This document shows positions 1,621 to 22,731 of a stretch of DNA of 22,731 bases, in pieces (the stretch's first letter is position 1; every line of letters begins with the position of its first letter). The notes under the pieces are model-generated. The model saw nothing but the letters and a program-made list of their open reading frames with translations, was not told the DNA's origin and searched no databases. The translations under genes and the position numbers were made by a program. This DNA is from a virus: the UHGV virus genome UHGV-1353574; one strand, given 5' to 3'.

Positions 1621-4600
1621 TCAGATCTTAATCTGCATGTTTCCACCCAGGGACTGCTCATACTCGCTGTATGCACTTTCCCCGTTGTCTTGCGACCACT
1701 GGTCAGACTGTTGGGCACGAGCCAGGGTCATCAGGTTTGGTTCAGTCGGGTTGTAGCCCTTGGACTTCGCATCCCGGTACAGAGTCTGCAGGTACTGGTT
1801 GGCGCGGTCAATCTGAGCTTTGAACTCTCGATATGCCCCTTCAGTTGTGTTGCGGCGGAAGGTGATATCCCAGTCCACGTTCAGAGTCTGCCCATCACGG
1901 CTTGCATAGATCTGCCAATCCAGGTCGCGACCTTTTGGTGCGTTGTCTCGGATGGAGTCGGCGTATGCCGCAAGGTCGGCACCAGTCTTCTTCGCAGTAC
2001 TCGACTCTTTCTCCAGTCTCTCGGTTTCTTTGGATAGGATACCCAACATAAAATCATTAGTGCGGCGATCCGCCATGTCGTACCCGCGCCAAAGGACTGA
2101 ACCGTTGTTGTCAACAGAAATGTCGTCCAAAAATACTTGTTTCGGATTATACGACGTGCTTTTCAGAGTTTGCATATTCCGAGATATCATTTCCATATTA
2201 GAAGAAATTTCATCGATCACGGCCTGAACAATATCTTTCTTCAAAGTAAGTTCATATGTCTTCGGATTGTTCAGGGTACGACCTTTATTGGATACCATAG
2301 GCGTGATCGCCACTTTGCCTTTGTCGTAGTAATAGGTCACATTCGTGGTCAATACAGCACCATCATACTTCCCAGTTTTCGGGAAATTGACGCCAGACCA
2401 AGTGATGGACATACCGTTGACAGTCTCACCAAACACCATGGCGTTGCGTGGCATCTTCAGGGTTCCAGAGTTGACCAGATCATCGCCTTGGGCATTCAGG
2501 TCGATAGAACCATAGATGGTCCCGGTGATACGATCTTTCAGCATCAGGGTCTTGTCGCCTTTCTCTGGGATGATTTCCAGTGGGTGCTTGCCACGCGGAG
2601 GCTCTTTGATGAGTTCCAGCAGAGCAGTGTTCCCTGGCTTCACACGATTCAGGACAGCGTCGGACACTGTCAGAGTCCAGTTTGCGGTTTCCACATAACC
2701 CCAGCCCCGAGAACGGCGAATGGCTTTGATAGGATATGGAGCGCTTGTTGGCACTGCGCTAATTTCCCATTTGCCAGTGTACTGGGTCTTGGCAACCTCA
2801 AAGATGGACGCAATTACCGCATTGGCGACGTCACGGGCGCTACCTTTGGCCACGTTCTCCTCTTCAGCAATTTCGCTGAAAACTGAGTATTGAACGAAAC
2901 CAGCGAGGACGTTTGTGAAGTTGACAACGATAACCAACCCGCCTGCCGTCGTGTAACGACCAGCGCCCACACGACGGATGTTCTCACCAGGAAGAATAGA
3001 AGTGTCCAGCCCAACGTTGGTATCAATGATACCCAGAACACGAGCGATGAAACCGCTGTCGCGTAATTGATCAACACTGGTTGCACCCTCGGTCGAATCC
3101 GATGCGGATTTAGACACTTTGTTCAACTTGATAGAGACAAGGGTTTCCCCGTTGACACCGATGATATCCCATTCAGTACCCTGCTCGTTCGAGATGCGGG
3201 CAATCTTGCGCTTTGAATTGATGGCACCTTCGTAACGCCCGTTCTTGACTACAACAGAGGCTGTGGCAGCATCAGTAGCACTTGCTGCATTTGAAAAGTC
3301 TGGGTCAGAAATACTGATATCGACGTCACCGTTTTGAGAACGCATGCGAACACCGTTTTTGAATCGTTCCACGTTTACTTCTCGAGCACCAAGTCGTTTG
3401 GCATCAATAACAGCAGTTCCAGAACCGATAATATTGGCTGGGTTATTTCTGTCTGAACTGTTTTGAGAACCTTTCCAAAATTTTGTGGACGCCGTGGTGA
3501 AATCATTCAGGATACTGATAGGGACTTGTGGTAATTTCAACTGACGAGCAATGAAATCAGCACTTTGCCCACGCACAGGTTTCTCATTCATGTATGCGCC
3601 AACATACACGCCCGGCTCATTGTAGTGGGGAGCGATATTTGCCGTGTTCATGCGGCCTCTCTCCTTACCAGCCCATAACAACATGGGCTGATCCCCGTTT
3701 GAAGTTAATTTCCATCCGTTGGAATTATCAACAGAAGATGAAGAACCAGCCCCGGTTCCCAAGTTTGTTTTTCTGGAATCTTCTACGTTTAGATTGAACA
3801 ATTGTTTCCCAGATGAGTCGGAAGCAATAAATTCATATTTCTTGCCACTGCGGGTACTCGTGCTGTTAACTTTGATGTTTCCAGTGTATCTTCCTGGATT
3901 CGTTTTTTGCATGAAATTGGTAATTGCAGCAGAAGGGGTTTTCATCCCAGAAATGATTCTAGCTGTCTCGGGATCAGTGAAAGACACTACGAGTTTGCGC
4001 CCATCCATCACTGTGATATCATTTCCAGACACCGAAATATCCAAGTCTTCCATTTCAGAACGGAAATCAACACCAACAACAATGGTTTGACCAGTTCCAC
4101 CCACAACGCCATCAACGCTGTTCTGAACCGGAACGTCACCGACCTTGTCTGGATCATCCCAGGTGATACCCTGCATCTTCGGACCGTCGAATACCTGAGC
4201 CGGATCTTTACCCTTGCGGACCAGCCACACATAACCACGGTCAGGGACAGGCGCGTAGGTCAGGTCCATGACATTCAGTTTCTGTTTCAGGCCGGACTGG
4301 CGGATGATCTTAGGAATCAGGGTCATACCGCGATCCAGCGCTTTCTTAGAGAAGTTGACAGCAAAGCCATCGATGGTCTTGCCCAGAGGAGTCGCCATGA
4401 ATTGTTTGGTCGCTTCGATCATGGAAGCGATAACGCGCATTGGGTTCTTGAAGCGAGCGATGGCGTCAGGATAGACGGAGCCGCGCTTCTGGCCGATGAA
4501 AACCTGACGAACGCTCTTGCCCAGCCCCTGAGGGGTATAGAACTGAATACGGTATTCCTTTTCATCTTCGTCGATGAAGGTGAAGAACACATCGCCTGCG

Positions 4601-6466: not shown

Positions 6467-6532
6467 GATGGCGTTCCTTATGTTTTGTCGACTTGCAGCT
6501 CGCTTGAGCCTCCTGACAGGGGTTAAAAGATA

Positions 6533-14977: not shown

Positions 14978-15102
14978 CTGGATTTCTCCGTTGGGTTAAT
15001 GTTTACTTTCATGTTCACTACAAGAGGGCTACAGTTTAACTAACAAATTTTATTGAATAAAGCGGAATTAATAGCCTTTCACCACGATTACAGTCTTTGT
15101 GC

Positions 15103-15543
15103 TCATATTTGCTCCGTTTGTTTCTCAACGCCCAGTGCGGCGGCATAGATACCACGAGCCATGCGATCATCACAAAATCCATACGTGAATAATCCAGCAA
15201 TGGCATCAAGGCGTTCCTGTGTTGGTGTGACAGGCACAGACACCGTTTGAACTTCAGTCTTTTCGGTGCCTTCCGGTTTCATCAAGACCTCCATTTCTTG
15301 ACGACTAACAACAATGGTTTCTACCTTATCTTCATCGATCAACATTTCGTTCAGAAGATCGTATCCCAACACTTGTGTATCGCCGATATATGTCTTCGCG
15401 TTCAGTTGTGCTTCGATACTTAACACCCTCTGAGCTGTAAGGCCACCAGAGGAGAACGGTACTGGATAGAAGGCGGAACGCACTTGGGCACACCCATTTA
15501 CGCTGTAACGAACCAGCAAGACATCACACCATACGCCAGCCAT
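15103..15543 (-). CDS. hypothetical protein (147 aa)
   Basis: Track start 15561 would overlap the upstream gene by 17 nt. The ATG at 15543 has GGAGGT 5 nt upstream and sits 1 nt after the upstream stop (TAATATG), so it is preferred. Confidence 0.6.
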   Translation of the reverse strand: MAGVWCDVLLVRYSVNGCAQVRSAFYPVPFSSGGLTAQRVLSIEAQLNAKTYIGDTQVLGYDLLNEMLIDEDKVETIVVSRQEMEVLMKPEGTEKTEVQTVSVPVTPTQERLDAIAGLFTYGFCDDRMARGIYAAALGVEKQTEQI

Positions 15544-15544
15544 A

Positions 15545-16207
15545 TTACACCTCCACCGCATGAGACTTCAGGAGTTCATCAATCTCTTTCTGCCCCATGT
15601 ATGAGAACGGGGTGCGCTGGTAGAACGCCCAGAGTACTAACTGGACAACAGCACGGGAACGGGTTTCGGCCGTCATCACCAGGCCACTGAAATGAGGAGA
15701 CTCAGCTGTCCATTGTATCTCTTCGCCCAGGTCTTGATTACAGGTCACCGAGATGCGGAACTTGTTGCACAGATTGTCGACTTCTTTGTACGCATCGGTA
15801 GACACACGAAGTTGTTCCGCATGTGCCCACGGAGTTGTGACGATTCTTTCACCCAACGTCTTTTCTGAAACGAACCAATCAATAGATTGGGTAAACTCGC
15901 TAAAATGGTCGATACGATAAATACAGTCTCCCCCTTCCATAGAACGCATGGCATGATAGCGAGCGTCAATTTCATTGTTGTGCATAGCGTTGAAGTCGAT
16001 GAACACGCGACGCGCCAGCACAACATCTTCTGGTTGAAGTGCCAGGAAATCGTTCAGGCGGCTATAATGGAGGATATTGGAACCGTCGTGGCCACGTGTG
16101 CAATATGCGTAATAGCTACCGATACGGGTGTGGGTAATATAAGACAACGGGGCGAAGAATAATCCGTCAGGATCAGGACCGACGATAATAGAATAAAGTT
16201 TTTCCAT
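15545..16207 (-). CDS. hypothetical protein (220 aa)
   Basis: Track ORF from 16306 would overlap the upstream gene and a hairpin; the ATG at 16207 is preceded by the recurrent CTATATC-ATG context. No recognisable motif. Confidence 0.55.
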   Translation of the reverse strand: MEKLYSIIVGPDPDGLFFAPLSYITHTRIGSYYAYCTRGHDGSNILHYSRLNDFLALQPEDVVLARRVFIDFNAMHNNEIDARYHAMRSMEGGDCIYRIDHFSEFTQSIDWFVSEKTLGERIVTTPWAHAEQLRVSTDAYKEVDNLCNKFRISVTCNQDLGEEIQWTAESPHFSGLVMTAETRSRAVVQLVLWAFYQRTPFSYMGQKEIDELLKSHAVEV

Positions 16208-16228
16208 GATATAGTCACTCAAATGAAA

Positions 16229-16252
16229 GGGCAGCTTTATGATAAGCCGCCC
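16229..16252 (-). terminator. putative terminator after the 16264..17130 gene
   Basis: Minus-strand RNA GGGCGGCUU-AUCAUA-AAGCUGCCC (9-bp stem with one G-U) followed by UUUCAUUU. Confidence 0.45.
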
Positions 16253-16263
16253 GAGGTTATTGA

Positions 16264-17130
16264 TTATTGGAAATCGCCAACATACATGTTCAGCTTGTCG
16301 TCCCAATTCAGAACGACACGGATCGTTCCAGTATCTTCTGGGAAGGTCAGTTTGTCACACATGGCGCGATTAACATAAGTCCCGCTCTGGTTGACGTTGT
16401 AGTCCTTGCCTTGCATGATACCAAAACGCTTGAAGTCGCGAGTGACCATCATGTTCAGAGTTGTCCAAGGGATTGTATCGCGCAGGGCTTTGCACAGGAC
16501 GATCTTGCCATCCGACCTGAACGACACAAACAGCTCGTTGGCGACACGACGGCGAGTAGGCGGTTCAAGTTCACGCAGGGAAATGAATTGTGAATTCTTT
16601 ACCTTTTCTGCCAGCGCCTGTACTTCTGCTGGATCCGGCTTGAACGGCTCCACTGAAGAGTCAGACTTCATCACAACGTCACCCTTGCGCTTCTCAACCA
16701 ATTGCTCCACAGCCTTTTGACTCACGGGAGGGAGGTATTTGGACTTAGGAACAACCGCTGGCTTGATGACAGGGCTTGCATCTGGTTTCGCCTTTGGAGT
16801 ACTCCGAGCCGCACGCAGCTTTTCCTGGGCTTGTAGAATGCGCTCTTGACGAGAAAGCGGAGCCTTTGGGGTGATCTTCGTACTGAAGTCAGAAACGCCG
16901 ACCCAGTCACCCTGGTCGTTGCGCTTGGCGACCAGGGTCAGTTTGTGGATGATACCCTGAAGTTTGCTCTCACGTAAGTTGTCGGCATACCAGAACTTCG
17001 CGCCCATCTCGAACTTCTCGGCGAAGATCACGCGAGCGTCTTCGTGTACCAACATAACTTTGGCTGCGTTGGGGGCAAAAGCCTTATTCTTTTCGATAAT
17101 CGCCGCAGCGATTGTTTTGGTCAGGAGCAT
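16264..17130 (-). CDS. hypothetical protein (288 aa) with a Pro/Lys/Ala-rich central linker
   Basis: Track start 17133 is GTG; the adjacent ATG at 17130 has GAAGGAA upstream. Central segment KAKPDASPVIKPAVVPKSKYLPPVSQK looks like a disordered linker between two domains. Confidence 0.6.
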   Translation of the reverse strand: MLLTKTIAAAIIEKNKAFAPNAAKVMLVHEDARVIFAEKFEMGAKFWYADNLRESKLQGIIHKLTLVAKRNDQGDWVGVSDFSTKITPKAPLSRQERILQAQEKLRAARSTPKAKPDASPVIKPAVVPKSKYLPPVSQKAVEQLVEKRKGDVVMKSDSSVEPFKPDPAEVQALAEKVKNSQFISLRELEPPTRRRVANELFVSFRSDGKIVLCKALRDTIPWTTLNMMVTRDFKRFGIMQGKDYNVNQSGTYVNRAMCDKLTFPEDTGTIRVVLNWDDKLNMYVGDFQ

Positions 17131-17169
17131 CACAGTGTATTCCTTCAGTTCACAATGTAGGGCTAAATT

Positions 17170-17496
17170 TTAACCCGAAACTTTATTTTGAAATCCGACA
17201 AAGTCCTGGGCAATCCCCCGACAATACATCAGGTCTTTCTTCGTTTGTGGACTGTTATCAGCCGCAGTCAGCATCATGGGAAGATCCAGCGCATTCTCTA
17301 TCTGATCAACACTGAACAGATCAAGGCGCTTCAGCTCCCCCTCGAAGTCGGACAGGAGGATAGATGTGTCTTTGTCATCTGGGTGGAACTGCTGATACGT
17401 CTCCATCCATGCCACACATGTGTTCAGTTTGGACGGTGGCGCGGCGTTTACACACCCGGCTATCAGTACCAACAAGAGCAGGATTTTACATTTCAT
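17170..17496 (-). CDS. putative lipoprotein (108 aa)
   Basis: ATG at 17496 with AAGGAG 8 nt upstream, overlapping the upstream stop (ATGA). N-terminus MKCKILLLLVLIAGC carries a lipobox (LIAG-C) after a hydrophobic signal peptide. Confidence 0.65.
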   Translation of the reverse strand: MKCKILLLLVLIAGCVNAAPPSKLNTCVAWMETYQQFHPDDKDTSILLSDFEGELKRLDLFSVDQIENALDLPMMLTAADNSPQTKKDLMYCRGIAQDFVGFQNKVSG

Positions 17497-18710
17497 CACT
17501 CGTTCTCCTTCATCATATTGTCGCAGTCAACACGAGTCTGCTGGAGTTCGCGCGACATGCGGGGATCATCAAGGTTCACGCTCAGATTCGTGGCCAGGTC
17601 TTTCAGACCGTTCTGAACACGATCCTCAAAATAATAATCGTTCTCAACCAGCCAGGCTCTGAGACCAAGAGCGCGGGTGCGCCATTCCTTCTTCAGGACG
17701 CGATCAGAGGTCTGCGTGGCGCTGTATTCGAATACTTTGACGCACTGGTTGCCATCGTTGATGAGGTTCAGGTGGCGGCGACCAACCTGCACACCCTTCT
17801 GTAATGCCGGAGAAGGGAGCGAACGGCACTGTCTGACTGTCATTCGGCCTTGGGTGCCCATTCGGCCAGTCATGATTAAATCGCCAGCCTCCATGCCTCC
17901 ACGGTTAAATTCGTCGTCATTGAGGTAGCCTTTGAGGTTATAGGCTCCCTGTTTGTAACGGTTGAACTCAATTCCGGCATTGACGACAGCAGTGGAGACG
18001 TTGCCTGTGTTCCAGAGTTCAGCGAAGTTCTCTATGGAACCAGACTTGTCGATGGCAACCGCCTGGGAGAACCCAGCACAATAGGAAAGGTCGGACCACA
18101 GTTTATCACCTGTGGAGTTCAGCTTGGCAGCGGCGGGTAATGCCAGACCAGCCAGCACAACCCCGAGGATTAAACGTTTCATGGCGATTCTCCTTATTTC
18201 ATTGGATGAAATGATAGGCGGCTCACCATGTTGAGTAAAGGGATTCAATAAACTATCGTATTCAGAAACGGGTATCACTGACCGTTCTGTATCGCACACC
18301 CTGAAACTGTTTAGCGAGTTTAACAATTCCATCGCTGGCAAATCAACTTTGTAGACCTTCATGCGCTGTTTGCCGTCCATGTTCAACGCAGCGACAAATC
18401 GGTGAGAACCGTCAACAACGTAATTGTCAGAAGACACCCAAACTCGACCCATAGGTTTCTTATTTCTGATCTGCTTCATAATCTTCCAGACCTTCATTTT
18501 ATTGATTTCGTTCTGGGTAAGACGAAGCATTTTGATGGGCACTTGCACAGCATCTATGGACACGCCGTTGTCTTCAAGATATTTGTGAAAATCTTCTTGT
18601 TTGTCGGCATCGATTTGCGGCATAGAAGAACGAGAAAGCCCGAGGTTCCCAACAGGAATCCTCAGGCCGTTAATGATGTTCAACCAGTCAATAAAAGATG
18701 TAAGGAACAT
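17496..18710 (-). CDS. ParB-like N-terminal domain fused in frame to a signal-peptide-led C-terminal domain (404 aa); possible internal second start at 18182
   Basis: ATG 18710 with GAGGTG RBS. N-terminal 176 aa carry a ParB/Srx-like motif (YVVDGSHRFVAA). At 18182 an in-frame ATG with AAGGAG 8 nt upstream begins MKRLILGVVLAGLALPAAAK, a signal-peptide-like segment. No stop separates the two parts. Confidence 0.6.
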   Translation of the reverse strand: MFLTSFIDWLNIINGLRIPVGNLGLSRSSMPQIDADKQEDFHKYLEDNGVSIDAVQVPIKMLRLTQNEINKMKVWKIMKQIRNKKPMGRVWVSSDNYVVDGSHRFVAALNMDGKQRMKVYKVDLPAMELLNSLNSFRVCDTERSVIPVSEYDSLLNPFTQHGEPPIISSNEIRRIAMKRLILGVVLAGLALPAAAKLNSTGDKLWSDLSYCAGFSQAVAIDKSGSIENFAELWNTGNVSTAVVNAGIEFNRYKQGAYNLKGYLNDDEFNRGGMEAGDLIMTGRMGTQGRMTVRQCRSLPSPALQKGVQVGRRHLNLINDGNQCVKVFEYSATQTSDRVLKKEWRTRALGLRAWLVENDYYFEDRVQNGLKDLATNLSVNLDDPRMSRELQQTRVDCDNMMKENE

Positions 18711-18718
18711 GACACACC

Positions 18719-18738
18719 TCGGGATATAGGGTTATCCC
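18719..18738 (-). other. perfect 6-bp hairpin directly upstream of the RBS of the 17496..18710 gene
   Basis: GGGATA-TAGGGT-TATCCC; no U-tract; abuts the GAGGTG Shine-Dalgarno, so possibly a translational or processing element. Confidence 0.3.
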
Positions 18739-18742
18739 TTAG

Positions 18743-18901
18743 TTAGCGCATCCATCGATCCTTTCTCTCTTTCTCCTTGCGTTCGCGACGTTTCTGATCG
18801 GATCGGAATAACCAATAGAAGAAGTTCCCACCCAAGATGAAAACCACCGCGATTATTACTAGGACACCCTTCACAATTTCCCAAACCAATTCTTTATCCA
18901 A
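18743..18901 (-). CDS. possible small single-pass membrane protein with a strongly basic tail (about 43-52 aa); start uncertain, no ATG
   Basis: Track ORF 18743..18934 starts with TTG inside the upstream gene. In-frame TTG at 18901 (GAGG 6 nt upstream) or GTG at 18874. Hydrophobic segment VKGVLVIIAVVFILGGNFFYWLF followed by RSDQKRRERKEKERKDRWMR. Lies in a 192-bp gap between genes. Confidence 0.3.
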   Translation of the reverse strand: MDKELVWEIVKGVLVIIAVVFILGGNFFYWLFRSDQKRRERKEKERKDRWMR

Positions 18902-18902
18902 A

Positions 18903-19562
18903 TTATACCTCGTCTTCTTCAGGTCCACCGTCAATCAGGATACGAGCGGTGTCGAAAGTTTCCCCGCCCGTGTTCAACAGCTTGGTTAGATCATCAAGAG
19001 TACCGACAGGACCAAGATCAGCCTGGCGGAGAACGAACTCGAGAAGCCCGTAGAGCGCTGATTGGAATCGGCTGTTGTCGATATCGTTCTTTATTACCAT
19101 CAGGCGTAAGATGTTCTCTGACTGAGTATGGCCAACACACGCCTTGTCTCTGATCATCTCCTTGATAGAACTTCTCTCGGATGGTGTCATAACGTACCCC
19201 CGACAGAGATCAAGAACTCTTCTTGCATGGTCTTGACCGGGTGGTGGTTGCGGGTTTTCGAACATGAAGCCCCAGCCACCGTCGGCGACGTTGCCAAAGG
19301 TCTTGACGCCAAAGGACTTCGTCCCGTTGGAGCAGGAATAGATGTCCAGGACGTATGGGCTACCCTGATTGTCGATCCCACGATTCACGTCGTCTGATAC
19401 GCAGCGCTCAATCATCTTCCCGTTCTTATACAGAACGAGGTCTTGGCCATACGCCTTGAAAGCATAAACACCGTTGGTAGACACTCCGGTGATGACAGGA
19501 GGGGCGGAAACAGCAGCAAAGGAAGCGCCCAGCAGGGCAACAGCGAGGATTAACTTTTTCAT
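18903..19562 (-). CDS. exported hypothetical protein (219 aa)
   Basis: Track start 19583 is TTG; ATG at 19562 gives N-terminus MKKLILAVALLGASFAAVSA, a typical Sec signal peptide resembling the internal MKRLILGVVLAGLALPAAA of the preceding gene. Mature part contains several Cys. Confidence 0.65.
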   Translation of the reverse strand: MKKLILAVALLGASFAAVSAPPVITGVSTNGVYAFKAYGQDLVLYKNGKMIERCVSDDVNRGIDNQGSPYVLDIYSCSNGTKSFGVKTFGNVADGGWGFMFENPQPPPGQDHARRVLDLCRGYVMTPSERSSIKEMIRDKACVGHTQSENILRLMVIKNDIDNSRFQSALYGLLEFVLRQADLGPVGTLDDLTKLLNTGGETFDTARILIDGGPEEDEV

Positions 19563-19586
19563 GATATAGTCTCTTGGTTTCAAATG

Positions 19587-19608
19587 GGCGGGGTATGATT
19601 ACCCCGCC
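19587..19608 (-). repeat. stem-loop repeat copy A (GGCGGGGTA-loop-TACCCCGCC)
   Basis: Perfect 9-bp stem with 4-nt loop (TGAT on plus strand), between the 19615..20121 gene stop and the 19562 start. A near-identical 22-nt element occurs at 20146-20167. Confidence 0.5.
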
Positions 19609-19614
19609 GTGGGT

Positions 19615-20121
19615 TTATAGGGTAACAAGTGATACGGTAAAAACCATCGTCCCGTCTGTTGCCATTTTTCTTGAAACTGGTATGACGCGAGGCTGGCAGA
19701 ATATCCATTCTTTCTCCATGGACGCCAAGTCCAGCATATCCATTTCTGATTCATCGCCTTTGTTCACAAATTTTTCTAGAGAACCATAGACATTAAGCCC
19801 CTCCGGGATTCTGTTTCGATGTTTGTAACAAATGCGGGCAACAGCTTGGGTTCCGTACGATTTAGAAAATTTTTTGGCCACATGCTTCAGTTCACTGAAG
19901 CTAAGGCAAGAATCCCATGTCTGGAACATGTCGCCTCGTTCAAACATCATCCCTAAACGCGCAACGTCCTCTTTAGGCAACCCGCGATAAAGTGTGGTCG
20001 TCTGTGGTTCGCGCAATTCTTGCACCAGATCACGGACGGCAGGGGAAACAGTACCGGGGCGCATGATGTGGGACTTATCATGGACGAGGTAAAATAAATC
20101 TTGAATTTGTTGATCGGTCAT
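19615..20121 (-). CDS. hypothetical protein (168 aa)
   Basis: Track start 20142 is TTG; ATG at 20121 with AGGAA RBS and the recurrent ACTATACC-ATG context. Contains LYRG ... S-x-S ... ESE residues that could be read as an R-S-E ADP-ribosyltransferase-like pattern, but this is weak. Confidence 0.6.
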   Translation of the reverse strand: MTDQQIQDLFYLVHDKSHIMRPGTVSPAVRDLVQELREPQTTTLYRGLPKEDVARLGMMFERGDMFQTWDSCLSFSELKHVAKKFSKSYGTQAVARICYKHRNRIPEGLNVYGSLEKFVNKGDESEMDMLDLASMEKEWIFCQPRVIPVSRKMATDGTMVFTVSLVTL

Positions 20122-20145
20122 GGTATAGTTCCTGCATTTCAAATA

Positions 20146-20167
20146 GACGGGGTAATCATACCCCGCC
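20146..20167 (-). repeat. stem-loop repeat copy B
   Basis: CGGGGTA-ATCA-TACCCCG on the plus strand; its reverse complement TGGGCGGGGTATGATTACCCCG matches copy A (19585-19606) over about 22 nt. Lies between the 20181..20420 gene stop and the 20121 start. Confidence 0.5.
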
Positions 20168-20180
20168 CAAAGTTATAGAA

Positions 20181-20420
20181 TTAACTGATGTGCTTCAGAA
20201 GAGCGAAGAGGATCACGGCCTTGGCCTTTACCTTTCCTACGATGCCTGTCTCGACATCAACTTCTTCAGCAACCCACTCTTTGCCTTTCTTGCTGATGAT
20301 CACGTCACGGCGCTGTGCGTAGACTTCTTTGGTCGCATACACACGACGGAACCCTTTAGCGCGGAGCAATCCCCAATTACGATCAATTTCTACTGAGGTT
20401 TCTACCATTTTGTTCTTCAT
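20181..20420 (-). CDS. hypothetical protein (79 aa)
   Basis: ATG 20420-20418 preceded by TTGAAA-N8-TATATC; stop TAA 20181-20183. Confidence 0.55.
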   Translation of the reverse strand: MKNKMVETSVEIDRNWGLLRAKGFRRVYATKEVYAQRRDVIISKKGKEWVAEEVDVETGIVGKVKAKAVILFALLKHIS

Positions 20421-20471
20421 GATATAATCTTACCTTTCAACCCGGTGAACCCATCGTTCGCCAGTTATTGA

Positions 20472-20501
20472 ATAATAGGACATTCCTTAGAGGAAGTAAA
20501 C
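20472..20501 (-). promoter_or_regulatory. candidate sigma70-like (T4 early-type) promoter for the 20181..20420 gene
   Basis: Minus-strand GTTTAC (rc of 20496-20501), 18-nt spacer, TATTAT (rc of 20472-20477); lies just downstream of the terminator at 20517-20536. Confidence 0.3.
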
Positions 20502-20516
20502 CCCTAAAAGTAAAAA

Positions 20517-20536
20517 TCCCCAACGTTTGTTGGGGA
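20517..20536 (-). terminator. rho-independent terminator after the ACP-like gene
   Basis: Perfect 8-bp stem TCCCCAAC / GTTGGGGA with 4-nt loop; minus-strand RNA followed by UUUUUACUUUUAG. Confidence 0.55.
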
Positions 20537-20542
20537 CTTCTG

Positions 20543-20866
20543 TTATTTGCGCAGGGCAACCACGAGTTCAGCGAGTTCACCCATGGTCGGGTCATCACCT
20601 TTACTACCCAGCCAACCGTCGTCGATTTCGACCTGAAACTCTTCTTCTAGTTCCATTACGATTTCGATGGCATCCAGTTCGTCACCGCCGAGGTCTTTCT
20701 TGGTACGGAGACCAGCCAGCTTGTCCAGGGCGTCCTCGTTCTGAGATGCCACGTCGTCCAGCAATTTGCGCTTGTCATCGTCACGCCACAGATCCATATT
20801 CAGATTGTCAGTGGCGTACTGAGCCAGATGACGCATGACTTCAACATATGTTGGTTTACTGCTCAT
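20543..20866 (-). CDS. acyl-carrier-protein homolog lacking the phosphopantetheine-attachment serine (Ser->Glu), 107 aa
   Basis: ...KDLGGDELDAIEIVMELEEEFQVEIDD... aligns by eye with E. coli AcpP ...[24 protein letters not shown]...; the conserved Ser is Glu (GAA, rc of 20678-20680). ATG 20866 with GGGAGAAG RBS, 1 nt after the upstream stop (TAG-C-ATG). Confidence 0.7.
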   Translation of the reverse strand: MSSKPTYVEVMRHLAQYATDNLNMDLWRDDDKRKLLDDVASQNEDALDKLAGLRTKKDLGGDELDAIEIVMELEEEFQVEIDDGWLGSKGDDPTMGELAELVVALRK

Positions 20867-20867
20867 G

Positions 20868-21473
20868 CTACTTCTCCCAAAGAAAGGCGGGTTGCCCCGC
20901 CCGTTGGATTAGATTTTGATTTTCTTTCTCTGTCAGTTCGGCAGTGACCTTGTACTTCACGCCATCCACTTCAACTTCCATGGTGGACTCTTCCAGGTCG
21001 AGGTCGGTGAACCAGCCGTGGCCAGCAACGATACCATACACCACTTTAGACAGTGTCTTGTTCAGGGCACGGACTTCGGTGATGGCCGCCTTGGCAGCAG
21101 CGTCGATCCAGTTTTCGATCAGCTGTTTCTGTAAGGCTTCAGGCACGGCAGTGATCATAGGAGACTTCACGAATGCTTCGTACTCTTTCAGAGCATTGGC
21201 GATGAACAAGTCACCAGCATTGAGTTTCTTGTTCTCTGCGATCTTCTTCTGTACTGCCGCGATGCTCGGTAGTGAAGACGCCCCGGCGATCTTCACGTTC
21301 AGCTCACGGCTCATGTAGAAGTCGGTAGACTCTTTGGTCTCAGTCTTCGGTGAGAAGCCGTAATCGCGGATGCCGTAGGAGGACAGGAACTCGGCCGCCT
21401 CAGCGCCGTACTGTACTGCCAGGCCTTTGGCGTTACCCTTACCAACCAGGGCGTCTCGATAGAACTTCAGCAC
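20868..21473 (-). CDS. C-terminal segment (about 201 codons) of a large gene that appears split by a +1 frame change; alternatively a separate gene with a GTG start
   Basis: Track ORF starts with GTG at 21473; the first ATG is at residue 54. The upstream ORF ends 35 nt into this frame, and the two frames can be joined at an A-run (minus strand CTGAAAAGG, plus strand tttt at 21487-21490). Confidence 0.5.
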   Translation of the reverse strand: MLKFYRDALVGKGNAKGLAVQYGAEAAEFLSSYGIRDYGFSPKTETKESTDFYMSRELNVKIAGASSLPSIAAVQKKIAENKKLNAGDLFIANALKEYEAFVKSPMITAVPEALQKQLIENWIDAAAKAAITEVRALNKTLSKVVYGIVAGHGWFTDLDLEESTMEVEVDGVKYKVTAELTEKENQNLIQRAGQPAFLWEK

Positions 21474-22731
21474 CTTCTGCTTGCCTTTTCAGGGCTTCCA
21501 GACGGACATTATCCGCAAAGAACTGAGCAGCACTGATGTTCTTGACCATGGCGCGGTTGACCAGCGGTACGCTTTCCAGGTTCAGGACAAACACTTCTGG
21601 ACCACCAAACACGTGGACGCCCATTTCGATCAGCTTATGCACGACTTCGATATCAGCCTTGAACGGCAGAGTCTTCACGTTAATGATACCGTCTTTGACG
21701 ATGGTGTAGTTGCGCCACTGGAAAGTATCCAGTTCTTCAGGCAGGCCAAACTTCTTCTGTGCGAATTCAGGCACAGCCACAGTACCGTGTTGAATTGTAC
21801 GCACACTGATGTTCGGGCGCTCGGAGTTATAGACCAAATCACTGATTGGCACAACACCCAGATCGTTGGTAGGTTCGAACGTCGGGTTCCACTCTTCGTG
21901 CTCTGCCAGCTTGAGAGCCAGGGCTTTACGCTCTTCTTTGGACTGAGCATTCGCGATCTGTTCTGCCAGCTTGTCTTCGGTGTCGTCGGTTTTCTGCACA
22001 GTACCGCGCCCGATGCTCTTGTAGGAGAACATCGGATGCTTGGTAGCAACAGGCACACCAGCTTCAGCCAGGTACGTCAGCACATCAACGACGGTGGTCG
22101 CATCTTCAGCTGGAACCAGGTCATAGTCAATACCGTCAACGCCGCGCAGCTGGTCGTCAACAATCGCCTGTACCAGATCGTTCTTGATGTTGGAGTAGTC
22201 CTGCTTGGTGAAGCAGTTGCTGTACTGTTTGATGAAGCGAACGTCGCCCGTCTTCTTCAGCGCAGCCCAAACCAGATCTGCGTCCATAGTGTGTACACCG
22301 TAGAACGCCAGCACATATGCCGCCTGGATGTCCGTCAGGCTATCCATCTGGTCGATCATGTTAGGGTTTACAACCCACAGCTTGGTGACGCTCTCAGGGA
22401 TGCTCACGTGGCCGATAGGATGGTCTTCATCCGGCTGTACCGCCAGAACAGTTGCTACGCCGTTTTCAACATAGATGGCGTGGGTGTATAGCAGAGGCAC
22501 ATCAACAACCACCTTCGGCACTGATGACTTCAGCACGTTTTCCAGTTCGGTCTGGTATTCGGTCTGACCTTCGGCAAACACGTGAGTAGCACCAGAGAGT
22601 TCGGCCATCTGCGCCAGCAGTTCTCGGTTACAGTACCAGCCATATTCGATGAAAGTAATGTTATCGAAAGCAAATGGCAGGGTCTCAGCAACCAGTAGAA
22701 TTTCGTTGGTACGCCAGCAGTTGTCATACCC
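21439..22731 (-). CDS. hypothetical protein, internal/3' part (5' end beyond window end); upstream part of the split large gene
   Basis: Track ORF 21439..22608 starts at the first ATG, but the same frame stays open to position 22731 (...GYDNCWRTNEILLVAETLPFAFDNITFIEYGWYCNRELLAQ-MAELSG...), so the gene begins outside the window. Stop TAA 21439-21441. No motif recognised. Confidence 0.6.
   Translation of the reverse strand, partial: GYDNCWRTNEILLVAETLPFAFDNITFIEYGWYCNRELLAQMAELSGATHVFAEGQTEYQTELENVLKSSVPKVVVDVPLLYTHAIYVENGVATVLAVQPDEDHPIGHVSIPESVTKLWVVNPNMIDQMDSLTDIQAAYVLAFYGVHTMDADLVWAALKKTGDVRFIKQYSNCFTKQDYSNIKNDLVQAIVDDQLRGVDGIDYDLVPAEDATTVVDVLTYLAEAGVPVATKHPMFSYKSIGRGTVQKTDDTEDKLAEQIANAQSKEERKALALKLAEHEEWNPTFEPTNDLGVVPISDLVYNSERPNISVRTIQHGTVAVPEFAQKKFGLPEELDTFQWRNYTIVKDGIINVKTLPFKADIEVVHKLIEMGVHVFGGPEVFVLNLESVPLVNRAMVKNISAAQFFADNVRLEALKRQAEGAEVLSRRPGW

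Follow-up and report, generated by a model that had tools for sequence, protein, structure and literature searches.

The closest described systems to the gene pair treated here are the two-component spanins, such as Rz/Rz1 of lambda and PseT.3/PseT.2 of T4. In these systems, of which the T4 pair has the 'separated' architecture, an i-spanin in the inner membrane and an o-spanin in the outer one bridge the periplasm, and lysis ends when they fuse the membranes. The two genes are adjacent with the larger one first, their start and stop codons overlap, and both products are targeted to the envelope and carry periplasmic cysteines. The i-spanin is held by an anchor of ~20 residues, and for lambda Rz an extended helical or coiled-coil periplasmic domain has been proposed as what drives its function; the o-spanin is a short Pro-rich or beta-rich chain, and spanins are hypervariable. 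A different type of system is found in Spackle (Sp) and RI of the large virulent myovirus T4, which are small Sec-exported periplasmic proteins binding the phage lysozyme domain and the periplasmic domain of the holin, respectively. The lysozyme inhibitors MliC/PliC, which are beta-barrels, belong to a single family whose members are either lipoproteins or soluble in the periplasm.

The DNA analyzed here (the window) is a stretch of 22,731 nucleotides from the virus genome UHGV-1353574. The phage belongs to the Vi01-like Ackermannviridae and shows 97-99% identity with Escherichia phage AV101 and Enterobacter phage fGh-Ecl02. Every gene of the region 17170-19562 is carried on the minus strand, and as read from the sequence the true genes code for a 124-aa secreted protein, a 95-aa protein, a 52-aa single-pass membrane protein, a 149-aa ParB-like protein, a 228-aa exported protein and a 108-aa lipobox protein (Table 1). 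The initial annotation postulated three consecutive genes for envelope-targeted proteins. The targeting was borne out, because the three N-terminal export signals are kept in the orthologues of other phages and are thus not due to chance. The genes are not consecutive, since the 95-aa, 52-aa and 149-aa genes intervene.

Table 1. Features of the region and of its upstream border (positions in the window).
Feature	Position	Strand	Basis and remarks
Small exported protein, 108 aa	17170..17496	-	ORF and translation; phrog_3843 match
Large exported protein, 228 aa (mature 209 aa)	17496..18182	-	Own start and Shine-Dalgarno; phrog_4260 match (no assigned function)
AAGGAG Shine-Dalgarno of large exported gene	18190..18195	-	Sequence reading; 7 nt 5' of ATG
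Sigma-70-like match TTTACT, 17 nt, TATCAT	18211..18239	-	Consensus scan; in ~80-nt spacer upstream of large exported gene
ParB/Srx-like gene, 149 aa in relatives	18262..18710	-	Weak ParB-like PHROG hits; broken by 1-nt deletion here
Small single-pass membrane protein, 52 aa, TTG start	18743..18901	-	phrog_14464 'membrane protein'; annotated in relatives
95-aa protein	18903..19190	-	phrog_4458 match, family without assigned function
Secreted protein, 124 aa in relatives, signal MKKLILAVALLGASFAAVSA/PP	19187..19562	-	phrog_5474 match, family without assigned function
GC-rich 9-bp hairpin	19587..19608	-	-18.3 kcal/mol, z-score -3.8; upstream of cluster, after Alt-like gene

The exported domain of 210 aa had been described as the C-terminal part of a ParB-like fusion. 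A signal-led domain does start at 18182, opening with MKRLILGVVLAGLALPAAA/K (the slash marks the predicted cleavage site) and continuing for 209 residues, but it belongs to an independent gene with its own Shine-Dalgarno sequence and ATG; the same AAGGAG site is recorded in the SpaninDB entry for phage Marshall. The 404-aa fusion ORF depends on a TT at 18325-18326, where 23 of 23 aligned relatives carry one more base. In all 23 related loci the ParB-like ORF is separate (149-155 aa) and ends ~80 nt before the exported gene, and in two of them (L009 and L020) homing-endonuclease-like ORFs are inserted between the two genes. The second exported, Cys-containing protein likewise begins as described, from 19562, but its 226-aa ORF is two genes. 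It is made by an extra A, giving AAAA at 19255-19258 (minus strand) where six of six relatives have AAA, and in the relatives the 124-aa and the 95-aa protein are encoded by two genes joined by an ATGA overlap. The two changes, one base each and both in homopolymers, are unique to the window. Since other isolated homopolymer indels split further genes in the window, with suspect homopolymer lengths at 6483, 7008, 20920 and 21486, the changes are likely to come from an error in sequencing or assembly, and both fusion ORFs are very probably single-base frameshift artefacts.

It should be noted that the presence of the 124-aa secreted protein varies among the relatives; it is absent from many Kuttervirus loci. 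The 95-aa protein lacks an export signal. The 52-aa protein has a very basic C-terminal tail and gave just weak, sub-threshold holin and YajC hits against Pfam and NCBIfam. The hairpin that precedes the cluster may mark the border of a transcript, and the sigma-70-like match is weak, as the number of such matches found in the region by the consensus scan is not above that in shuffles. A search of the window against Rfam gave no RNA families.

The two remaining genes, for the large and the small exported protein, form a translationally coupled pair which together with the upstream ParB-like gene is conserved across all sampled Ackermannviridae. The two are adjacent in all 23 related loci (21 from IMG/VR and two distant metagenomic ones) and overlap by 1 or 4 nt. 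The start of the lipoprotein gene had been reported to overlap the stop before it as ATGA; an overlap exists, but its sequence is TGATG (1 nt), or else GTGA when GTG serves as start codon. The coupling extends into the coding sequence, where the conserved C-terminus of the large protein, KENE, encodes the Shine-Dalgarno sequence of the small gene. The large protein was found in 271 phage records and the small one in 282, all Ackermannviridae-like, and PMC10892097 counts both genes among the 114 that make up the core of Vi01-like phages. When 1.84 billion representatives were searched by HMM, and in a profile word search as well, no members outside the two families came up; the large protein gave 10 hits, all from the same family, and every hit with a source name or traced to a contig comes from a phage of the Ackermannviridae type. 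The two families were also considered as paralogues, which was rejected at a profile-profile probability of 11%. The exported proteins gave nothing significant against Pfam, NCBIfam or PDB sequences, and these and the fold searches gave no match to anything characterized, in agreement with the initial annotation, which had left the function open.

The small protein of the window opens with MKCKILLLLVLIAG/C, a rule-based reading of which gives the canonical lipobox LIAG/C at residues 11-15 with Val and no Asp at position +2; in the window lineage the protein is thus predicted to be an outer-membrane lipoprotein. That the gene codes for a lipobox lipoprotein had been claimed before, and the claim is right for the window but describes a trait of one shallow lineage and not of the family. 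A lipobox-like motif is present in seven of 47 small-protein clusters (51 of 223 member sequences), while 39 of the 46 full-length clusters have none and carry AxA/AP-type sites at the end of the signal instead. Vi01 itself is among the latter (Vi01_115c reads VMA/TP), the small protein of the Limestonevirus-like locus L008 has no lipobox either, and in P0037, which is 93% identical to the window protein, a Ser replaces the lipid-accepting Cys. The mature domain is nevertheless strongly conserved in spite of the absence of a lipobox from most clusters. MliC/PliC offer a parallel, as the same family is lipid-anchored in some lineages and soluble in others, so that the anchor can be optional for a periplasmic binder; the small protein differs from them in being all-helical and has no homology to them.

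An outer-membrane lipoprotein of a phage might mask a receptor in the manner of Cor or Llp and so hinder other phages in adsorption or DNA entry, and the lipobox with its outer-membrane sorting signal would fit such a role in the window. The restriction of the lipoprotein character to one shallow lineage weakens this and other outer-membrane readings. We have rejected receptor masking because the anchor is not conserved; in addition the small protein always comes together with a larger exported partner, and the Pfam and PDB searches showed it to resemble neither Cor nor Llp in sequence or fold. It is extremely unlikely to be the function of the protein.

The AF2 model of the small protein (pLDDT 77, core 80-92) is a compact bundle of five helices, with a mature domain of ~90 aa. 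The mature protein has 93-94 residues, five of them Pro (~5%), and SpaninDB lists 56% helix for the Marshall orthologue. Cys27 and Cys92 are invariant, and helix 1 carries an invariant C-x2-W-x3-Y-x3-H pattern which suggests a binding surface. A fold search with the model gave generic hits only, with no likeness to Spackle, RI, Cor or Llp. A unimolecular spanin of the T1 gp11 type was considered and rejected, as the protein ends with the polar sequence ...DFVGFQNKVSG and has no hydrophobic segment or transmembrane domain at its C-terminus.

Residues P16, A17 and A19 of the large protein are invariant throughout alignment A1, in contrast to a variable h-region, and make up a predicted Pro-Ala-x-Ala signal-peptidase site; the signals of distant homologues end with ASA/A, AWS/E and ANA/G. 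Before Pro16 there is a hydrophobic core of just 12 residues, and the uncharged run measures 16 aa, compared to 17-26 aa in six i-spanins from SpaninDB. The Gly/Ala-rich N-terminus could nevertheless work as a signal-anchor-release segment instead of being cleaved off. Four cysteines (35, 119, 147 and 220) are invariant.

The public databases present these proteins as spanins. GenBank, RefSeq, PHROGs and SpaninDB use the labels i-spanin, o-spanin or 'Rz-like spanin', the last being the name of phrog_3843, which the small protein matches at E 1e-54. The labels go back to a single annotation of phage Marshall made by a student, and the curators of SpaninDB took it over while stating their doubt; the pair was filed as 'separated', with the largest combined periplasmic length in the database, and both proteins are singleton families there. 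According to the labels the 228-aa protein would be an inner-membrane i-spanin and the 108-aa protein an outer-membrane o-spanin, and the order of the genes with the large one upstream, the 1-nt overlap, the periplasmic cysteines in both products and the perfect lipobox of the window protein all fit such an architecture. Furthermore, the Ackermannviridae have no other known spanin.

Our comparison nevertheless agrees with the initial annotation, where the lack of a canonical spanin look had been judged by eye. An i-spanin has an uncleaved N-terminal transmembrane segment, and by sequence rules the large protein has a short core followed by the invariant P-A-x-A in its place. For an o-spanin the lipobox should be conserved, and it is missing in most orthologues of the small protein. 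No coiled coil is predicted in the Marshall large protein (99% identical to that of the window; 35% helix, 12% strand in SpaninDB), a feature which is also lacking in >120 i-spanins of SpaninDB. The folded helical bundle is unlike the short, Pro-rich and mostly unstructured periplasmic part of the prototype, lambda Rz1, although SpaninDB admits more structured o-spanins. The high conservation of the pair is at variance with the hypervariability of spanins, and neither Pfam, NCBIfam and PDB nor the HMM search revealed homology to any tested spanin. Ten other Vi01-like phages were listed as spanin-less by the authors who included Marshall (Kongari et al., 2018), and the searched literature yielded no experimental test of the label. 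Judged from its sequences the pair does not qualify as a canonical spanin of the two-component type: the label falls short at both of the anchors that define the class, and we consider that reading very unlikely.

A related hypothesis is that the spanins are replaced by a periplasmic complex, either soluble or with a single tether, which would destabilize the outer membrane or the connections between it and the cell wall but would not reach across both membranes. Because the family has no recognized system for outer-membrane disruption and the gene order is like that of 'separated' spanins, such a lysis effector keeps some probability. The pair belongs to the core genes in all sampled Ackermannviridae, and the small protein tolerates tethering to the outer membrane in one lineage. 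The family is listed as spanin-less, a scan of Vi01 showed two annotated lipobox genes only, neither of them preceded by an i-spanin-like gene, and lysis genes are not mentioned in a 2024 review of the Ackermannviridae. However, the proteins have no cationic or amphipathic character of the membrane-active kind and no likeness to known membrane-active proteins, the endolysin gene (Vi01_086c) is ~20 kb away in Vi01, the late-type promoter motif TATAAATA does not occur in 15000-22731, and the idea is built on the absence of alternatives. We find this hypothesis unlikely, and a bolder reading, in which the Ackermannviridae lack canonical spanins and the soluble pair would be an anchor-independent third route to outer-membrane disruption or lysis control, unlike both spanins and the cationic 'disruptin' peptides, rather improbable.

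Conservation of the large protein is 80-95% across genera, as strong as that of core enzymes, and its conserved polar motifs GGMxAxDLIMTG and NDGNQC could belong to a periplasmic enzyme. With the small protein as accessory subunit it might modify peptidoglycan, LPS/O-antigen or capsule and thereby alter receptors or condition the envelope; polysaccharide receptors are used by these phages (PMC11721090). Against this stand the lack of a sequence match to any enzyme family and the existence in phiMAM1-like phages of a 126-aa version without the C-terminal half. The AF2 model of the large protein, made from 23 close homologues, had a pLDDT of 37 and was unusable for a fold search. An enzyme with a subunit is improbable.

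The pair is most likely a soluble, disulfide-bonded periplasmic complex, as far as this can be read from sequence. The model proposes that Sec signal peptides, whose cleavage we infer from sequence rules and conservation, direct both products to the periplasm. The even numbers of invariant cysteines (four and two) are consistent with internal disulfides, so that the large product would be a mature protein of 209 aa with two predicted disulfides and the small product a helical bundle of ~90 aa with one. In most family members both would be cut by signal peptidase I and be soluble. In the shallow lineage which includes the window a single Ser/Gly-to-Cys change would have made the lipobox, and there the small subunit probably carries a lipid that holds it at the outer membrane. 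Formation of a complex is something we infer from the gene coupling alone. As a whole, this explanation of a coupled, exported periplasmic pair which is not a spanin is the one we favour, with somewhat less than even confidence.

What the complex would do can only be proposed tentatively: it may bind a conserved target and block it. The most plausible one would be a muralytic or lysis component encoded by the phage, such as the tail lysozyme (Vi01_076 in Vi01) or a partner of the holin/endolysin, and the complex would then act like T4 Spackle or RI, protecting the envelope of the infected cell or timing its breakdown. Like these the small protein is a small exported helical protein of a large virulent myovirus, with the AxA sites in the family (by sequence rules) giving the same kind of Sec export. 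The pair is also located among replication-type genes and not in a lysis cassette, and its conservation fits a phage-encoded target. It differs from Spackle and RI in showing no sequence or fold similarity to them, in being a two-protein module, and in being core to its family. Core genes at 80-95% identity are unusual for superinfection exclusion, which counts against the favoured explanation. The searched literature on lysis genes of the Ackermannviridae contained annotation-level mentions only, with no data found on transcript timing or gene essentiality.

The two frameshift artefacts are a caution for any reading which is based on sequence only, since each of the two 'fusion' proteins came from a single-base change. 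The 'Rz-like spanin' and 'i-spanin' labels are spread by automatic annotation over the Ackermannviridae, a family widely proposed for phage therapy and biocontrol, and several of those sampled among the 271 and 282 records already carry them. The exported pair is a testable candidate for lysis control or envelope protection in this family.

The two genes for the large exported protein and the small lipobox protein are already catalogued and their label as a spanin pair is widespread; the object itself is not new. What is new here is comparative sequence evidence indicating that the spanin label fails its own defining tests. The GenBank record of Salmonella phage Marshall names these two genes i-spanin and o-spanin, and the small protein is an "Rz-like spanin" in RefSeq and PHROGs (phrog_3843). 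The label originates from Marshall, which was annotated in an undergraduate course and then entered in SpaninDB (Kongari et al., 2018), whose curators noted a doubt on the entry. In SpaninDB the Marshall pair stands apart: no other pair is as long (300 periplasmic residues), each member is a singleton family, and coiled coils are predicted in neither. The same study lists CBA120, ECML-4, PhaxI, RC-2014, SJ2, SJ3, Maynard, Vi01, SFP10 and phiSboM-AG3 as spanin-less, and all ten are Vi01-like. Both genes belong to the 114 core genes of Vi01-like phages (2024 comparative paper, PMC10892097). The literature searched contained no experiment testing the pair.

The 2.7-kb region matched 275 phage records, and the best matches are all Ackermannviridae, among them Enterobacter phage fGh-Ecl02 (98.8%), Escherichia phages ZQ1 and AV101 (97-98%) and Salmonella phages Maynard and Marshall (92-93%). 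AV101 and fGh-Ecl02 are 97% identical to the window over its whole length. Every gene of the region is on the minus strand. The initial annotation described three consecutive genes for envelope-targeted proteins. The three N-terminal export signals are present (MKCKILLLLVLIAG/C at 17496, MKRLILGVVLAGLALPAAA/K at 18182 and MKKLILAVALLGASFAAVSA/PP at 19562, all on the minus strand; a slash marks the site), but the genes are not consecutive. The true order along transcription is 124-aa secreted, 95-aa, 52-aa single-TM, 149-aa ParB-like, 228-aa exported and 108-aa lipobox protein. The window was aligned with fGh-Ecl02, Marshall and CECAV_050 and then compared with all fetched loci by local BLAST, which revealed two differences private to the window. 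At 18325-18326 it has TT where 23/23 aligned relatives have one more base, and with this change the 149-aa ParB-like frame runs on into that of the exported gene, giving a 404-aa ORF, the supposed ParB-like fusion. At 19255-19258 it has AAAA on the minus strand where 6/6 aligned relatives have AAA, and the supposed second exported protein of 226 aa is the 124-aa secreted protein fused to the 95-aa protein. These genes are separate in every related locus, and the 228-aa gene has its own AAGGAG and ATG. Compared to AV101, isolated single-base indels are found at 6483, 7008, 14668, 18325, 19255, 20920 and 21486; most change homopolymer length (e.g., TTT vs. TTTT, CCCCC vs. CCCC) and several break frames. 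At 20868-22608 two ORFs match phrog_2426, a profile of 736 positions, whose counterpart in the relatives is a single gene of ~740 aa annotated as a VWA-domain or tail protein; the two ORFs are therefore one gene split by frameshifts. Because of these further homopolymer indels and the split gene, both fusion ORFs are most likely sequencing or assembly errors, and the indel pattern as a whole looks like error rather than biology. Two related loci (L009 2387-3220 and L020 2339-3214) carry an ORF of 277-291 aa between the ParB-like and the large exported gene; this spacer tolerates inserts. By its HHILP motif alone the ORF looks like an HNH-type homing endonuclease.

Features of the region in window coordinates
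Feature	Position	Strand	Remarks
Small lipobox protein, 108 aa	17170-17496	-	
Large exported protein, 228 aa	17496-18182	-	
Single-pass membrane protein, 52 aa	18743-18901	-	TTG start; conserved; very basic tail RSDQKRRERKEKERKDRWMR; matches phrog_14464
GC-rich hairpin, 9 bp	19587-19608	-	after Alt-like gene; -18.3 kcal/mol, z -3.8
Alt-like ADP-ribosyltransferase fragment, 175 aa	19615-20142	-	phrog_832
Split ORFs	20868-21473 and 21439-22608	-	match consecutive parts (170-548, 553-733) of phrog_2426

A two-component spanin requires an outer-membrane lipoprotein and a partner anchored in the inner membrane. When the homologues of the small protein were grouped at 90% identity, a lipobox-like motif was found in only 7 of 47 clusters, six of these being within 96-99% of the window protein. 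In the remaining 39 full-length clusters the signal peptides end AYA/AP, VQA/AP, ALA/VP, AQA/AG or similar. One relative, at 93% identity over the aligned part, shows LMAGS in place of LIAGC, and Vi01, the type phage of the family, has the site VMA/TP. Conservation of the mature domain is strong throughout: C27, W30, Y34, H38, E52, K56, D71 and C92 stay invariant down to 29% identity. It follows that the function of the small protein cannot depend on the lipid anchor; that it is a receptor-masking lipoprotein is very improbable. The large protein has an uncharged N-terminal stretch of 16 residues, 12 of them before Pro16, compared to 17-26 residues in six i-spanins from the same SpaninDB sheet as Marshall. 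P16, A17 and A19 never vary, unlike the hydrophobic residues, and distant homologues have the sites ASA/A, AWS/E and ANA/G. Such an N-terminus points to a cleaved signal peptide rather than to a membrane anchor; signal-anchor-release behaviour may be an alternative. The rarity of the lipobox and this short run with its invariant residues speak against a true spanin, which we find improbable in spite of the records, and the comparative anchor tests across the family agree with the initial impression by eye that the proteins are not canonical spanins.

Both families are narrow. The large-protein profile gave 10 hits in an HMM search of 1.84 billion representatives, all from the same family; the small-protein profile gave the 47 clusters, the traceable ones all from Ackermannviridae-type contigs. 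By tblastn, 271 phage records carry the large protein and 282 the small. Two divergent metagenomic phages keep the ParB-like, large and small genes together as a triad, with the pair only 30-40% identical. The invariant cysteines number four in the large and two in the small protein, even counts that fit internal disulfides formed in the periplasm. In the phiMAM1-like Serratia phages the large protein is only 126 aa long and lacks the C-terminal half, which must then be dispensable or supplied elsewhere; at L021 and L022, two related loci (3624-4004), this form is the N-terminal domain with two cysteines. The codons of the invariant C-terminus of the large protein, ending MMKENE (17499-17515, minus strand), contain the small gene's Shine-Dalgarno sequence AAGGAG, and part of the conservation of this C-terminus may be a constraint of translational coupling rather than of the protein. 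We consider it likely that the genes encode a core, translationally coupled, Sec-exported and disulfide-bonded periplasmic pair, soluble in most of the family, with the small subunit probably tethered to the outer membrane in the window lineage, and not a canonical spanin. More tentatively, a fold that is compact and locked by disulfides, an invariant pattern of residues in helix 1, the conservation independent of host genus and the optional anchor suggest a periplasmic complex which would bind or inhibit a conserved target, following the logic of T4 Spackle or RI. The target would probably be phage-encoded, e.g., the tail lysozyme or a holin/endolysin partner. It is unlikely that the pair is instead a periplasmic enzyme together with its accessory subunit.

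The cluster is surrounded by replication and host-takeover genes (helicase, HU-like protein, Alt-like ADP-ribosyltransferase, acyl carrier protein), and in Vi01 the endolysin is about 20 kb from the pair. No T4-type late-promoter motif was found in 15000-22731; a sigma-70-like match lies in the spacer ahead of the large gene, such matches not being enriched compared to shuffles. That the pair is a non-canonical lysis effector is doubtful. A six-frame scan of Vi01 gave ten ORFs with a lipobox-like motif. Only two of them correspond to annotated genes, those for a Band-7-like protein and for Vi01_193, and no i-spanin-like gene precedes either. The 52-aa membrane protein is a fourth envelope-targeted product, which had not been listed, and gives only sub-threshold hits to holin and YajC. 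The slot upstream of the 124-aa gene is variable: the window has the 175-aa Alt-like fragment in it, other relatives a denV-like glycosylase or nothing. The hairpin has a 4-nt loop, ATCA; in fGh-Ecl02, Marshall and CECAV_050 the loop reads TGAT, its reverse complement, which looks like an inversion of the loop. Vi01 has a block a few genes downstream of the pair (74021-75920; 24021-25920 in the fetched stretch L029) which is absent from the window. It contains a Band-7-like lipoprotein (LLSG/C), a small two-TM protein, a LysM-like protein of 102 aa annotated as "endolysin" and a gene annotated as "superinfection exclusion"; accessory genes related to the envelope seem to gather in this neighbourhood.

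We would class the pair with the phage-encoded periplasmic accessory proteins, a broad class of which it is an uncharacterised member. The spanin label spreads automatically, and the comparative evidence corrects an annotation which is still propagating. It also singles out a candidate that can be tested, in a family ten of whose Vi01-like members are listed as spanin-less.
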